Assembly: GCA_902493795.1 (NCBI GenBank)
Contig: CABUQZ010000009.1
Span: 3,329-67,328 of the forward strand
Origin: an uncultured Clostridium sp.
GTDB taxonomy: Bacteria > Bacillota_I > Bacilli_A > RF39 > UBA660
DNA: 64,000 nucleotides
Direction: 5' to 3'
The position numbers and the translations under genes were made by a program. Shown piece after piece: positions 44,522-50,898 of the stretch (the first letter of the stretch is position 1; the number at the start of each line of letters is the position of its first letter). The notes under the pieces are model-generated. The model was not told the DNA's origin and did no database searches. It worked only from the letters and a program-made list of their open reading frames with translations.

Positions 44522-46186
44522 ATGTTAGAAAAATTTAAAGGGAATGTTATGAAACTTACATTGGGTGGAATAGCATTATTTATTTTCGGAATTTTTATAG
44601 GAATTCAATTAAACTCAGGAGCAATTGATTCGATTCAAGGATTTTTGTTTAATGTAACAAGAAACTCTAGCGCAACAAACTCAAACGCCACAAACTCAAA
44701 TGCCACAAACTCAAATGCCACAAACTCAAACGCAACGAATTCAAATGCAACGAATTCAAATGCCACAAACTCAAATGCAACGAATTCAAATGCCACAAAC
44801 TCAAATGCCACAAACTCAAACGCAGAAGATCCTAGTGCAACAGATAATATAATATATCTTGAAAGCTTTCATTTGATAACTAAAGAAGCAAATGCTGGAG
44901 ATACTGTTTACGTAAGTTTCGAAACAAGTGGTGCATGTCTTAATGGTATAACTGTCACATTAAAAAATCAAAAAAATAATACAACCTTTACTGCATTAGT
45001 AAAATCAATAGATGATGACCCATATATTATTTTACCAAGCAATTTATCTACATCTTCATACATTGTTACAGATGTATTACTAATTGGTTTGAACAGCGAT
45101 AAAACAACATTTAGTAAACATTACAACAATAATAGTATAGAATTAAAAGATACTGTCTCTGTTAAAGAAAAAGTTGTTGTTACCCCTGTAAAACTTAATA
45201 GTATTTCTATTGATCCAACTGATGTATCAGTGGGTAGTAAGATTAATGTCACATTTGATGTTAATAAATCTTTACAAAGCTTAAAACTAGAATTTAAATC
45301 TACAGATAATAAAACAATGGTTGTGTATGTTAAATCATTAACAAATAAACCATATTTTGAAATACCTACAACAACAGTTGGTGGAACATATTCATTATAT
45401 AGTGCTACATTAACTTCTTCTGATAGTACAAAAGTCTATACAACGAATGGATCTAATGGATCTTTAAAATTTAATTTTAATTCAAAACTTGTAATTAGTG
45501 ATGGAACAGAAACTTCATTTATATATAATAACGAAGATATTAATTCACAAATAATTACTAAGCTATATAATTCTAAAGAAAAAACAGAAATTACAATTAA
45601 TGCTGATTCAAACACAATAATTGATAAAGAATTATTTAATACAATTAAAGGAAAAGATAAAACTTTAATAATTAATCATAGTGATAATCAACTTGTATTT
45701 AATGGAAATGATATTAAGAATTCTAAAACTATAGATGTTAATATGTTAATCGAAGAAACTACAGCAAATGAAAATATTAGAAAATTAGTTTCAAAAGGTA
45801 TTATTGTTAACTTCCCAGATAATGGTAATCTTCCTGGAAATGCTTTAGTAAGAGTTAAAGCAACAGAAGATATTAATAAACTACTTGGTGATAAGATTTA
45901 TGTATATTTTTACAATGAATCTTCTAATAATTTCTCTGTTATAGCAGAAGATGTTAAGAAAAAAGATGACGGATATTATGAATTTACAATATCACATAAT
46001 TCTGATTATCTATTGGTAAATAAAAAAATAGATAGCAAATTAGTTGTATCTCAAAATATTGATAACGTAGTTTCATTCCAAAAAAGTAACGGTACATACT
46101 TGTTATTAATTGGAGTAGGAGTAGTTGTAGCTATATCATTAGCTATAGTTATCATAGTAGTTAGGAAAAAGAAAGAGATTAAATAA
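44522..46186 (+). CDS. Surface protein with N-terminal TM/signal anchor, (ATNSN)x10 low-complexity linker, beta-rich domains and C-terminal TM anchor
   Basis: N-terminal segment LTLGGIALFIFGIFIGIQL, then the repeat, then a C-terminal TM LLLIGVGVVVAISLAIVIIVV followed by RKKKEIK. Confidence 0.7.
   Translation: MLEKFKGNVMKLTLGGIALFIFGIFIGIQLNSGAIDSIQGFLFNVTRNSSATNSNATNSNATNSNATNSNATNSNATNSNATNSNATNSNATNSNATNSNAEDPSATDNIIYLESFHLITKEANAGDTVYVSFETSGACLNGITVTLKNQKNNTTFTALVKSIDDDPYIILPSNLSTSSYIVTDVLLIGLNSDKTTFSKHYNNNSIELKDTVSVKEKVVVTPVKLNSISIDPTDVSVGSKINVTFDVNKSLQSLKLEFKSTDNKTMVVYVKSLTNKPYFEIPTTTVGGTYSLYSATLTSSDSTKVYTTNGSNGSLKFNFNSKLVISDGTETSFIYNNEDINSQIITKLYNSKEKTEITINADSNTIIDKELFNTIKGKDKTLIINHSDNQLVFNGNDIKNSKTIDVNMLIEETTANENIRKLVSKGIIVNFPDNGNLPGNALVRVKATEDINKLLGDKIYVYFYNESSNNFSVIAEDVKKKDDGYYEFTISHNSDYLLVNKKIDSKLVVSQNIDNVVSFQKSNGTYLLLIGVGVVVAISLAIVIIVVRKKKEIK
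44672..44821 (+). repeat. Ten in-frame 15-bp tandem repeats encoding ATNSN
   Basis: Two synonymous unit types are interleaved: gccacaaactcaaa(t/c) and gcaacgaattcaaat, plus one gcaacaaactcaaac. Confidence 0.95.
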
Positions 46187-47483: not shown

Positions 47484-47690
47484 AACTTCTGGCAAAAAGA
47501 GTAGTGAATATATTTTTTTTAGAGAAAGTATGTATGGTGAAAATACTTATTAATAATTCATGAATGACAGTTGCTTTATATGAAGAGTCGTGTATTCGCG
47601 TTAAGAATCAAAGCATAATTAATTATGGAATTAAGGTGGCACCACGAGGAAATCGTCCTTATATAGTGTCATCTTTTTATATTTTTTAGG
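47484..47690 (+). promoter_or_regulatory. T-box leader (tRNA-sensing riboswitch) of hisS-aspS
   Basis: Conserved T-box sequence ggaattaaGGTGGCACCACGag at 47628-47649. Stem I elements AGAGA (47521-25) and GGTGAAA (47536-42). Imperfect terminator helix ggcac..gagga/tcctt..gtgtc overlaps the T-box 3' half, followed by a T-rich tract. Same position as the B. subtilis hisS-aspS T-box. Confidence 0.8.
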
Positions 47691-47700
47691 AGGAAAAGTT

Positions 47701-49155
47701 ATGATTAATAAACAAAAAGGATGTCTTGACCTATATGGAATGAATGCTAAGAAATGGCAATATGTAAACAAAGTAATCGATAGTTTAATGGAAAAGTACA
47801 ATTATAATTATATTCGTACACCTATTTTTGAATCATCTGAACTATTTCATAGAGGAATAGGAGATTCAACTGATGTTGTAACAAAAGAAACCTATGACTT
47901 TAAAGATAGAGGAGATAGAAACATTACATTACGTCCTGAAGGAACAGCAGGAATAGTAAGAAGCTACATTGAAAACAAAATGTATGGAGATCCTAATCAA
48001 CCAGTAAAACTTTACTATAATGGAACAATGTATCGTTATGAAAGACCTCAAAGTGGAAGAGATAGAGAATTCACTCAATTTGGAGTAGAAGTATTAGGAA
48101 GCGATGATCCACTTGTAGATGCAGAAGTAATATCAATTCCAGTAATGCTTTTAAAAATGTTAGGTCTAAAAGGAGTTAAAGTAAAAATTAATTCATTAGG
48201 AGATAAAGAATCACGTGAAAGATATCGCGAAGCTTTAATTGATTACTTTAAACCACATATCAACGAACTTTGTGAAGATTGTAATGAACGTCTTCTAAAA
48301 AATCCATTGAGAATTTTAGATTGTAAAGTTGATAAAGATAATGTTTTATTAAAGAATGCCCCAAAAACAGTAGATTATTTAAATGAAGAAAGTACAAAAA
48401 GATTTGTAGCAGTTCAGGAATATTTAAATGAACTTGAAATAGATTATGAAATTGATTATAGACTAGTAAGAGGATTAGACTACTATAATCACATTGTCTT
48501 TGAAATAGAAGCTTCAGTTGAAGGATTTGGGTCAAATAACGTTTTAGCAGGTGGTGGAAGATATAATGGTCTTGTTGATACACTTGATGGACCAGCTACT
48601 TCTTGTGTAGGATTTGCTTGTGGCCTTGGAAGAATTATTCAAGCGCTAGATCTTGAAGAAGTAGAACTTCCAATTGATGATAAACTTGAAGTATTTGTAA
48701 TGTATGTGTCAGAAACAGAAAAGAAATACGCTGCAAGTTTAGTTAACTACCTAAGATCAAATGGGTTTAAAACTGATACAGAGTATACTGGAAGAGGATT
48801 AAAAGCTCAGTTTAAACAAGCAGATAGATTAAAAGCTAAATTCTTAATTATCTTAAATGATGAAGACTTAAAAAATGACGAAGTAAGAATAAAAGATAAT
48901 AAAACTAAAAAAGAAGAACTAGTAGGAATTGATTACTTATTATATTTCCTAGATGAACATTTAAGTGATGAAGATTTAGGTGACTTAGAAGATTATCAAC
49001 AACACCCATATTGTGAAGATGACTGTGATTGTGACCACGATTGCGATTGTGACTGTGATGATGACTGTGACTGTGACGAAGAAGACGAGTGCAAGTGTCA
49101 TCATGAAAATCACGAATGTTGCCATGGAAACTGTCATTGTAAGGAGGAAGATTAA
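47701..49155 (+). CDS. hisS: Histidine--tRNA ligase with a 63-aa Cys/Asp/His-rich C-terminal extension
   Basis: Class II motifs LRPEGTAGIVR, YRYERPQSGRDREFTQFGVE and GGGRYNGL. Anticodon-binding domain, then the tail SDEDLGDLEDYQQHPYCEDDCDCDHDCDCDCDDDCDCDEEDECKCHHENHECCHGNCHCKEED. Confidence 0.95.
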   Translation: MINKQKGCLDLYGMNAKKWQYVNKVIDSLMEKYNYNYIRTPIFESSELFHRGIGDSTDVVTKETYDFKDRGDRNITLRPEGTAGIVRSYIENKMYGDPNQPVKLYYNGTMYRYERPQSGRDREFTQFGVEVLGSDDPLVDAEVISIPVMLLKMLGLKGVKVKINSLGDKESRERYREALIDYFKPHINELCEDCNERLLKNPLRILDCKVDKDNVLLKNAPKTVDYLNEESTKRFVAVQEYLNELEIDYEIDYRLVRGLDYYNHIVFEIEASVEGFGSNNVLAGGGRYNGLVDTLDGPATSCVGFACGLGRIIQALDLEEVELPIDDKLEVFVMYVSETEKKYAASLVNYLRSNGFKTDTEYTGRGLKAQFKQADRLKAKFLIILNDEDLKNDEVRIKDNKTKKEELVGIDYLLYFLDEHLSDEDLGDLEDYQQHPYCEDDCDCDHDCDCDCDDDCDCDEEDECKCHHENHECCHGNCHCKEED

Positions 49156-50898
49156 ATGAAAAAATATAATAATGCAGAATTTAATATAAATAATGTTGGA
49201 CAAAAAGTAGAATTATATGGATGGGTACAAAAGAAAAGAGACCTAGGTGGTCTTGTATTCATCGATTTACGTGATAGATCTGGAATAATACAGTTAATAG
49301 TAAGACCAGAAAATGAGTTTTACAGTTTAGCATCATCATTAAAAACAGAATCAGTAATCAAAGCGGTTGGAGAAATTTCTGAAAGAGAAAATAAAAACTT
49401 TAAAATTCCAACTGGAGAAATAGAAGTAATAATAGAGTCACTAGAACTTATTAACTCATCTATTGATATTCCATTTGAATTAACAGATAACACAACAGCA
49501 CTTGAAGAAACAAGATTAAAATATCGTTACCTAGATTTAAGAAGAGAAAACTTAAAAAACAATTTAATTCTTAGACATAAAGTAACAATGATTGCAAGAA
49601 ATTACTTATCAAGTAAAGGATTTATTGAAGTAGAAACTCCAATTCTTTGCGTACCAACTCCAGAAGGAGCAAGAGACTATCTAGTACCATCAAGAATAAA
49701 TCATGGACATTTCTATGCACTTCCTCAATCACCTCAAATATTTAAACAATTATTGATGATTGGAGGAATGGAAAAGTATTTCCAAATAGCAAGATGCTTT
49801 AGAGATGAAGACTTAAGAGCAGATAGACAACCAGAATTTACACAAATAGATATCGAACAAAGCTTCTCAAGTGAAGAAGAAATCTGGGATACAGTTGAAG
49901 GATTAATGAAAAAGATTTTTTCTGAATTAAAAAACGTTCATTTAGAAAAATTCCCAAGATTAACTTATAACGAATGTATCGACCGTTTCGGAAGTGATAA
50001 ACCAGATACTAGATTTGCTATGGAAATACAAGATATCACTCCAATATTTAGTAAAACATTCTTTGAAGTATTTAGTAAAATCATCGCTGATGGTGGAATA
50101 ATTAATGCAATCGTATTAAAAGGATATGCATCAACAATTTCAAGAAAAGAAATAGATAAATTAACTGAATTTGTAAAAATATATAAAGCTAAAGCCTTAT
50201 CATACTTAAAATACAACAACAATGAATTAACAGGATCAATTGCTAAAGTTTTAGATGACGAAGAGAAAAAAGCTCTAATTAACCAATTAGACCTTCAAGA
50301 AAATGATATGGTATTTGTAATAGCAGATCAAAAAAGTATTACTAAAACTGCACTAGGAGCTTTAAGAGTTAAACTAGCTCGTGAAAAGAATTTAATTGCT
50401 GAAGATAAGTATAACTTCTTATGGGTTACTGAATTTCCAATGTATGAGTACTCTGAAGAAGAACAACGCTATGTTGCAGCCCATCATCCATTTACTGCTC
50501 CAAGAGAAGAAGATATCGATAAATTATTAACTGATAAAGAAAACTGCTACTCAAGAGCATATGACCTAGTGCTTAATGGATATGAATTATTAAGCGGATC
50601 AGTTAGAATTCATGATAGTGAAACGCAATCTAAAGTATTTGAAGCAATAGGATTAAGCCCAGAAGAAGCAAAAGAAAGATTTGGTTTCTTCCTAGAAGCA
50701 TTTAAATATGGTGCACCACCTCATTGTGGAGTAGGAATAGGACTTGAAAGACTTGTAATGATTCTATGTGGAACAGATAACATAAGAGATGTAGTAGCAT
50801 TCCCTAAAACAGCTAGTGCTCAAGACTTAATGAATGAAGCTCCAGGAACTGTTACAGAAAAACAACTTAAAGAACTAGGAATAAAACTAGATAACTAA
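49156..50898 (+). CDS. aspS: Aspartate--tRNA ligase
   Basis: Motifs FRDEDLRADRQPEFTQIDIE and GIGLERLVM, with the GAD insertion domain. The start abuts the hisS stop (taaatg), and its RBS AAGGAGGA lies inside the hisS tail codons. Confidence 0.95.
   Translation: MKKYNNAEFNINNVGQKVELYGWVQKKRDLGGLVFIDLRDRSGIIQLIVRPENEFYSLASSLKTESVIKAVGEISERENKNFKIPTGEIEVIIESLELINSSIDIPFELTDNTTALEETRLKYRYLDLRRENLKNNLILRHKVTMIARNYLSSKGFIEVETPILCVPTPEGARDYLVPSRINHGHFYALPQSPQIFKQLLMIGGMEKYFQIARCFRDEDLRADRQPEFTQIDIEQSFSSEEEIWDTVEGLMKKIFSELKNVHLEKFPRLTYNECIDRFGSDKPDTRFAMEIQDITPIFSKTFFEVFSKIIADGGIINAIVLKGYASTISRKEIDKLTEFVKIYKAKALSYLKYNNNELTGSIAKVLDDEEKKALINQLDLQENDMVFVIADQKSITKTALGALRVKLAREKNLIAEDKYNFLWVTEFPMYEYSEEEQRYVAAHHPFTAPREEDIDKLLTDKENCYSRAYDLVLNGYELLSGSVRIHDSETQSKVFEAIGLSPEEAKERFGFFLEAFKYGAPPHCGVGIGLERLVMILCGTDNIRDVVAFPKTASAQDLMNEAPGTVTEKQLKELGIKLDN

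Follow-up and report, generated by a model that had tools for sequence, protein, structure and literature searches.

A cysteine- and histidine-rich C-terminal tail on histidyl-tRNA synthetase of gut Bacilli, a candidate metal-binding extension

Aminoacyl-tRNA synthetases are among the best-studied enzymes, and the domains appended to them are well catalogued. Low-complexity tails that bind metals are known as a kind, and histidyl-tRNA synthetase (HisRS) appears to be undescribed as a carrier of one. In this study, we analysed a stretch of 64,000 nucleotides (the window; contig CABUQZ010000009.1, positions 3,329 to 67,328 of the forward strand, assembly GCA_902493795.1) from an uncultured Clostridium sp. 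of the GTDB lineage Bacillota_I; Bacilli_A; RF39; UBA660. The HisRS encoded there by hisS ends in 63 residues rich in Cys, His and acidic residues. An earlier note on this DNA, made from its letters and open reading frames (ORFs), had likened this tail to metallothionein and had stated that no such appendage was known on an aminoacyl-tRNA synthetase. Our full-text literature searches agree with the latter statement, since they yielded no report of HisRS, or of any other aminoacyl-tRNA synthetase, with a tail rich in Cys and His. We consider it probable that the tail has been selected for binding of metal ions.

Several described proteins resemble the HisRS tail in form. SlyD, the FKBP-type peptidyl-prolyl isomerase of Escherichia coli and Helicobacter pylori, has, like HisRS, a disordered His/Cys/Asp end on a folded housekeeping protein, and the length and sequence of its tail likewise differ among species. 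The C-terminal tail of SlyD binds several Ni2+ or Zn2+ ions (PMC3292732). The SlyD tail is dominated by His and works with HypB in the maturation of [NiFe]-hydrogenase, whereas the HisRS tail is dominated by Cys (22%), is carried by a synthetase and occurs in a genome in which neither HypB nor UreG was found. Domain B of HspA, the GroES of H. pylori, is likewise a His/Cys-rich addition to the C-terminus of an abundant essential protein and is specific to its lineage; its CC...H-rich pattern resembles the HHENHECCHGNCHC end of the HisRS tail. This extension has been described as a nickel-scavenging tail (PMC8779794, PMC5116745). It is known from Helicobacter and is tied to the nickel demand of urease and hydrogenase, whereas HisRS tails occur in many families, reach about 130 amino acids and 41 Cys, and stand here in a genome where no nickel-maturation GTPase was found. 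Metallothioneins, among them the bacterial SmtA and BmtA, share with the HisRS tail a very high Cys content, CxC and CC motifs, an extra His ligand and a disordered state without metal, which for HisRS is a prediction. They hold several ions in thiolate clusters, as would be expected of the HisRS tail. Unlike them, the HisRS tail is not free-standing, is not homologous, is far more acidic and has no fixed number of Cys. SecA is, like HisRS, a housekeeping enzyme in which a flexible linker is followed by a C-terminal Cys/His site, and this metal site modulates the enzyme (PMC6620043; bioRxiv 10.1101/613315). The SecA domain has a fixed motif, a single ion and known partners (SecB and the ribosome), whereas the HisRS tail looks like a multi-site array without a conserved register; the short HisRS ends of other families (CKSC...CDDC, CGCNDCSC) resemble the single site of the SecA type. 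The C-terminal extension of plant HMA4 contains repeated Cys pairs, binds zinc with nanomolar affinity and is required for function (PMC6255694). Like the HisRS tail it is a long cytosolic tail with repeated Cys pairs, but it is eukaryotic and is attached to a zinc pump rather than to a translation enzyme.

The 484-amino-acid product of hisS is a genuine HisRS. It scored 463.9 bits against the NCBIfam hisS equivalog TIGR00442 (cut-off 286.75), 140.6 bits against tRNA-synt_His (PF13393, residues 10-311) and 50.1 bits against HGTP_anticodon (PF03129, residues 330-418). In the AlphaFold model the last helix of the anticodon-binding domain spans residues 410-421. From these domain limits and the end of the helix, the tail begins directly after the last helix of the domain. 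The tail (residues 422-484, 48964..49152; SDEDLGDLEDYQQHPYCEDDCDCDHDCDCDCDDDCDCDEEDECKCHHENHECCHGNCHCKEED) consists of 14 Cys, 7 His, 18 Asp, 10 Glu and 2 Lys together with other residues, so that 28 acidic residues stand against 2 basic ones. Its Cys residues are at positions 438, 442, 444, 448, 450, 452, 456, 458, 464, 466, 473, 474, 478 and 480, forming six CxC pairs and one CC. At the background rates of the proteome (Cys 1.12% and His 1.28%, ORFs of at least 200 amino acids), the binomial probability of at least 14 Cys in 63 residues is about 1e-14, and that of at least 21 Cys plus His is about 1e-18. When all stop-to-stop ORFs of the 1.64-Mb assembly, which is 94% complete, were scanned, no second long ORF with a comparable Cys/His-rich stretch was found; the remaining matches were short off-frame ORFs. 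The hisS gene is the sole HisRS copy in the genome, and one other weak match lies in the anticodon-domain region of a 589-amino-acid ORF. On recount, all factual statements of the earlier note were borne out, including the 14 Cys and 7 His in a 63-residue tail on a true HisRS and the higher GC content of the tail DNA (40.7%) than of the hisS body (30.0%) and the window (26.9%).

The earlier note had suggested a survey of HisRS orthologues for C-terminal extensions, and had allowed that the tail might be absent from all close relatives or be due to a frameshift or an assembly error. Tails were found in relatives, so this objection falls away. The 90% cluster of this HisRS has eight members, five of which have an identical tail, and the variants stay in frame. 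Across NCBI, ENA and Logan assemblies, the 484-amino-acid form was counted on 22, 19 and several single contigs; identical or near-identical proteins of this length occur on more than 40 contigs from independent assemblies. In one within-species variant, seven of eight differences are inside the tail, including a change of C474 to H. A frameshift or an assembly chimera was therefore rejected: the tail lies in one open frame, has the same length across many assemblies and is conserved in relatives. It is a genuine, inherited part of the protein.

Among the best 120 homologues (71-100% identity to the query), nearly all have C-terminal tails of Cys, His and acidic residues and, bar a few truncated entries, are 439-515 amino acids long. 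The 80 named loci are from metagenome-assembled genomes (MAGs) of uncultured Bacilli from the guts of goat, sheep, deer, rabbit, mouse, chicken and human (Hadza, Nepal). Most of them are tailed, and the shapes extend from the short ECECGGH up to arrays of repeats that exceed 100 residues; tandem units include (CGDDCS)n and repeats of 19-22 amino acids. At least three Cys follow the last helix in 91 of 136 distinct HisRS from related loci, and these 91 have 3-41 Cys in tails of up to about 130 amino acids. The wider genome sample covered the same class. In it, Cys-tailed HisRS occur in families f1, f5, f7, f8, f15, f16 and f27 of small-genome Bacilli, and all of these except f1 contributed Cys- or His-rich ends outside the query's own family. 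All four complete genomes of one genus (g35, 2.4-3.0 Mb) are tailed (...GGCCGGHGHD...ECCGG...GCGCQH). The short Cys4-type ends of other families, with CKSCSEESCDDC as a listed example, could fit the spacing of a zinc ribbon or zinc knuckle, and some relatives have pure His ends without Cys (EDHDHHHHHEQQE). Among the best 150 representatives of 50%-identity clusters, about 145 lack Cys/His ends and 4-5 have them; this search folds the clade into tail-less representatives and gives a coarse picture only. In a FastTree phylogeny built from the HisRS body without the tail, at least 16 changes are required to explain the trait, compared with 29-43 when labels are shuffled, on a quick tree whose sample was partly picked for matches running into the tail. 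The trait appears on this tree to be inherited within clades and also to have been gained or lost repeatedly. By these comparisons, the tail in the window is one case of a feature spread across a large group of related gut bacteria.

The tails turn over rapidly in length and sequence. In 154 unique tails, Cys amounts to 17.4% (15.5 times the proteome value), His to 13.3% (10.3 times), Asp plus Glu to 36% and Gly to 9%, and Asn, Lys, Ile and Phe, which are favoured by the 27% GC bias, are depleted. Cys is heavily under-represented in prokaryotic low-complexity regions (PMC6821194). Indicative rates of change were obtained from 76 alignable tail pairs in a spanning forest of nearest neighbours. 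The fraction of positions changed was 5.7% for Cys, 12.7% for His, 18.8% for Asp, 44% for Asn and 16.9% overall (Fisher P against the overall rate, 2e-28 for Cys and 4e-9 for His). Cys is the least-changed residue of the tail, about three times below the average, and replacement between Cys and His is the most frequent one involving Cys. Tail length, register and repeat number vary, and the number of Cys ranges from 0 to 41 without conserved spacing. Since Cys changes least and the composition opposes the AT mutation bias, selection appears to act on ligand content and not on a fold; the putative ligand residues are the conserved feature, without fixed fold or spacing.

These results bear on the idea that the tail is a neutral low-complexity expansion, in which GAYTGY units slipped into the spacer between hisS and aspS and were tolerated at a free C-terminus. 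The central array of the tail is indeed periodic in 6 nucleotides (TRF: period 6, 9.7 copies, 74% matches, 49020-49077), the tandem units of relatives indicate rapid turnover in length, at least 16 gains or losses are required on the tree, and some lineages do without the tail. We read the array as having grown through slippage, though not recently, because synonymous codons are mixed across it and no recent perfect repeat is present. However, slippage without selection would hardly yield a composition that opposes the AT bias across at least seven families, a threefold lower rate of change at Cys and a strong clustering of the trait on the tree. We regard a neutral origin as very improbable; it is one of the two weakest of the alternatives. 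Two ORFs with Val/Thr/Ile runs overlap the tail DNA, at 48985..49203 (-, 72 amino acids) and 49013..49159 (+, 48 amino acids). They were rejected as genes and are off-frame by-products of the GAYTGY repeat.

The aspS gene encodes an aspartyl-tRNA synthetase (AspRS) of 580 amino acids and is probably translationally coupled to hisS, because the hisS stop abuts the aspS start. The earlier note had proposed that the tail is constrained at both the RNA and the protein level. The protein level held, whereas the RNA level did not extend beyond the last four codons, KEED. Shine-Dalgarno (SD) sequences of the GAGGAGGAA or GAAGGAGA type encode the terminal EEE, EEEE, EGE and KEED of relatives, and the Cys/His part is upstream of the SD in every locus compared. 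The SD follows the hisS stop in about half of the related loci, and at four loci (L027, L057, L071 and L074) the gene that comes after a Cys-rich hisS is not aspS but another one, with a terminator-like hairpin in between. We conclude that the Cys/His part is free of RNA-level constraint and is a protein-level feature. Relatives without Cys are as tightly coupled to aspS. The tail is independent of the coupling to aspS. At loci L006-L008, L012 and L035-L038, hisS overlaps aspS by 13-14 nucleotides in a different frame. The HisRS endings ...DEEI and ...DEKI arise because hisS runs into the out-of-frame start of aspS; for ATGAAGAAATATAA, the hisS frame gives D-E-E-I-stop and the aspS frame gives M-K-K-Y-N.

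The same loci argue against a codon-level sensor, in which Asp, His and Cys codons before aspS would tie completion of HisRS and initiation of AspRS to charged tRNA-Asp, tRNA-His and tRNA-Cys. Such a sensor would suit an operon where the hisS stop abuts the aspS ATG, where the SD lies within the tail and whose two enzymes take Asp and His as substrates. It would also suit the leader of the operon. A T-box (RF00230) upstream of hisS scored 87 bits, below the gathering score of 93, with an E-value of 8.8e-20, and is thus missed by a scan at the default threshold; since the match is full-length and the conserved T-box sequence is present, the leader is very probably genuine. In our reading of ...GAA U GAC A... 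in the alignment, its specifier is GAC (Asp), so that the operon would sense tRNA-Asp and tRNA-His would go unsensed by the leader. However, the conserved residue is Cys, and the gene for cysteinyl-tRNA synthetase is outside the operon. Many tails contain few Asp, the Cys tails are kept where the SD follows the stop and at the four loci where another gene comes next, and Cys-free relatives show equally tight coupling. A codon-level sensor is thus hardly credible to us and stands with neutral expansion as the weakest of the alternatives. As for base composition, GC content in 74 loci is 38% in tails and 30% in bodies, with a modest shift in tails to C-ending codons of Cys, Asp, Gly and Glu. The excess is mainly due to amino-acid composition (codons of Cys, Asp, His, Glu and Gly). 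A foreign origin of the GC-rich patch was rejected because this composition covers most of the excess.

The structural form of the tail was compared with known classes of metal site. AlphaFold2, run with 43 homologues, modelled the body with moderate confidence and gave residues 424-484 a predicted local distance difference test score (pLDDT) of 26-37 without secondary structure, so the tail is predicted to be disordered. The tail lacks the fixed CxxC...CxxC and compact fold of a zinc ribbon or zinc knuckle. It resembles metallothioneins in its density of Cys, with CxC and CC motifs, and, as modelled, in having no fold without metal, and it has the form of the SlyD/HypB/UreE/HspA type, a disordered His/Cys/acidic end on a folded carrier. 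The ferredoxin-type spacing CxxCxxCxxxC is absent; only CxC, CxxxC and CC spacings occur. This speaks against an iron-sulfur (Fe-S) site, by which the tail would ligate one or more clusters and tie HisRS to iron or oxygen status. The tryptophanyl-tRNA synthetase of Thermotoga maritima reportedly has a [4Fe-4S] cluster, the HisRS tail is Cys-rich and the organism is anaerobic. Tails of the SecA type, long held to be zinc sites, are reported to bind iron in vivo (bioRxiv 10.1101/613315). Nevertheless, a Cys number of 2-41 without conserved register, together with the ferredoxin spacing that is missing, fits such clusters poorly, and the high content of His and Asp/Glu is atypical of them. We consider an Fe-S site improbable.

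The Cys residues may also be viewed as a thiol redox switch or oxidant sink. In this case the Cys array, bare or as a zinc thiolate as in Hsp33, would be oxidised by O2 or peroxide and would alter the activity or solubility of HisRS, slowing translation through uncharged tRNA-His. With 14 Cys in 63 residues, the CxC and CC motifs could form vicinal disulfides; Cys is the most conserved residue of the tail, and the hosts are gut anaerobes known only as MAGs. A redox function is moreover compatible with metal binding, and a zinc-thiolate switch requires both. On the other hand, His is also enriched 10-fold and conserved, and as many as 41 Cys are more than a switch requires. The pure His tails without Cys (EDHDHHHHHEQQE) and the interchange of Cys and His fit metal ligation better. 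A redox switch thus seems unlikely, though it deserves some weight.

The acidic residues suggest another explanation, in which an acidic tail would imitate nucleic acid and compete with tRNA for the nearby anticodon-binding surface, or would serve solubility as an entropic bristle, and the Cys and His would be secondary. The excess of 28 acidic over 2 basic residues and the attachment of the tail to the anticodon-binding domain are in line with it. Relatives without Cys keep an acidic linker, for example ...SSEEFSDSDLEEYLEQNEE, which suggests that the acidity of the tail predates its Cys and His. This explanation does not cover the 15-fold enrichment of Cys, the 10-fold enrichment of His and the conservation of Cys, and it may apply to the linker alone. 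As an account of the whole tail, it is doubtful at best.

The metal-related genes of the genome bear on which ion would be bound. On contig C34 (3140-4425), a 134-amino-acid Fur-family regulator (CxxC...CxxC) is encoded immediately upstream of a lipoprotein of the ZnuA family, for which the best, sub-threshold matches are the zinc binders AztC and AdcA. This adjacency recurs in several genomes of the same genus, and the locus looks like a Zur-regulated zinc uptake locus. A second ZnuA-family protein is present in the genome. Contig C5 (28836-33719, minus strand) contains a metal-efflux cluster with an ArsR/CadC-like regulator, a 76-amino-acid HMA protein, a 617-amino-acid CPC/DKTGT P1B ATPase without an HMA domain, a 70-amino-acid CopZ-like protein and a 732-amino-acid CopA-like ATPase; both P1B ATPases are of the CPC type. 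A profile search of the genome found no HypB, UreG or COG0523 protein, and its two weak cobW-family matches were Era and Ffh; given the 94% completeness, the absence of HypB and UreG is probable but not certain. Genes for zinc-type uptake and efflux without nickel-maturation GTPases make zinc likelier than nickel. The comparison with HypB, SlyD and UreE that the earlier note had drawn thus survives as to form and is weak as to a nickel-chaperone function. No CDF exporter (PF01545) was found in this assembly; most relatives have 1-3, and the absence may reflect the 94% completeness. A link between the tail and loss of a CDF zinc exporter was rejected, because CDF is present in most tailed relatives.

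Considering all these results, it is probable in our judgement, although far from assured, that the tail is a disordered, acidic tail of thiolates and imidazoles, which has been selected on the sole HisRS for its capacity to bind soft or borderline transition-metal ions in metallothionein-like clusters. We infer metal binding, the identity and number of the ions and the physiological role from sequence. The acidic linker would tether the Cys/His part to the end of the anticodon-binding domain, and the tail would fold around several ions, with the thiolates and imidazoles of a disordered polyanion as ligands. Zn(II) would be the most likely physiological ion, and Cu(I), Cd(II), Ni(II) and Fe(II) would also be bound. 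With about 3 ligands per ion, as in metallothionein clusters, one chain would hold about 5-7 ions and the HisRS dimer double that number. The most likely role would be a protein-bound zinc buffer or small reserve on an abundant, essential and constitutively made enzyme; a metal-dependent modulator of HisRS would be a less likely role.

Several points weigh against this metal-binding reading. A Cys-free acidic tail or no tail is found in 39 of the 136 HisRS, which means that the function of the tail is dispensable. In 61 relatives, the presence of the tail did not track the content of Fur, ZnuA, CDF or HisD. No Pfam family, including metallothionein models, matched the 63-residue tail at E-values up to 1, and no PDB relative was found at E-values up to 10. 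A search of 5.8 billion proteins, limited by low complexity and database size, found no free-standing relative or other carrier of the tail; whether the tail was searched alone or as a region of the full protein, only the HisRS itself was returned. Alignments of low-complexity tails are uncertain, so the rates of change given above are indicative. With synthetase copy numbers and zinc quotas at their usual levels, no more than a few percent of the zinc in a cell could be bound by the tails, which makes bulk storage unlikely; a buffer, a small reserve or regulation is more plausible. Finally, metal binding leaves HisRS as the particular carrier unaccounted for.

The earlier note had suggested a link between metal status and the charging of tRNA-His, which is speculative, and a more specific proposal can be made along this line. 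The present genome lacks histidinol dehydrogenase (PF00815), as do 59 of 61 genomes of the group, whereas 14 of 14 controls have it, so the lineage is probably auxotrophic for histidine. In this large radiation of small-genome gut Bacilli, the polyanionic tail would be tethered next to the anticodon-binding surface, and the zinc occupancy or oxidation of the tail might switch the charging of tRNA-His, making HisRS a metal- or redox-gated enzyme. We consider this unlikely. If true, metal and oxygen status would be wired into translation and, through uncharged tRNA-His, into growth control, and HisRS would be the first case of a metallothionein-like regulatory module fused to an enzyme of its class, the aminoacyl-tRNA synthetases.

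Table 1. Features of the hisS-aspS region, in positions of the window.
Feature	Position	Strand	Remarks
T-box leader (very probable), upstream of hisS	47485..47663	+	RF00230, model positions 1-219 matched
hisS ORF	47701..49155	+	484-amino-acid product
HisRS body, class II catalytic core and anticodon-binding domain, residues 1-421	47701..48963	+	PF13393, PF03129, TIGR00442; last model helix
Acidic linker SDEDLGDLEDYQQHPY, residues 422-437	48964..49011	+	In relatives, similar acidic linkers stand before the Cys/His part and are kept in Cys-free variants
CxC array CEDDCDCDHDCDCDCDDDCDCDEEDECKC, residues 438-466, 10 Cys and 1 His, degenerate 6-nucleotide GAYTGY repeat	49012..49098	+	
Cys/His end HHENHECCHGNCHC, residues 467-480, 4 Cys and 5 His	49099..49140	+	
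Last four codons KEED	49141..49152	+	Hold the aspS Shine-Dalgarno sequence AAGGAGGA (49141-49148)
hisS stop TAA	49153..49155	+	aspS ATG immediately after
aspS, AspRS of 580 amino acids	49156..50898	+	Abuts the hisS stop

Two further observations were made in and near the window. At 44522-46186 (+), a 554-amino-acid predicted membrane or surface protein has about eleven tandem ATNSN pentapeptides near its N-terminus and a hydrophobic, basic, anchor-like C-terminal end. Upstream of the window, at the start of the contig (C9:1-1066), a 355-amino-acid open frame contains a Cys-dense C-terminal stretch, VCCTCSKRTCQTCNKKCRTAACGCETCSTC.

In conclusion, we found that the HisRS of an uncultured gut bacterium has a Cys/His-rich acidic tail, which selection appears to have maintained across several families of gut bacteria that are common in humans, ruminants, rabbits and rodents. 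To our knowledge, no metallothionein has been established in Firmicutes-type bacteria. Should the tail bind zinc, such bacteria would have in it a protein-based buffer for metal, and metal homeostasis would be physically linked to translation. The tails may also be regarded as a natural library of short, genetically encoded sequences of the metal-binding type with a high density of Cys and His.

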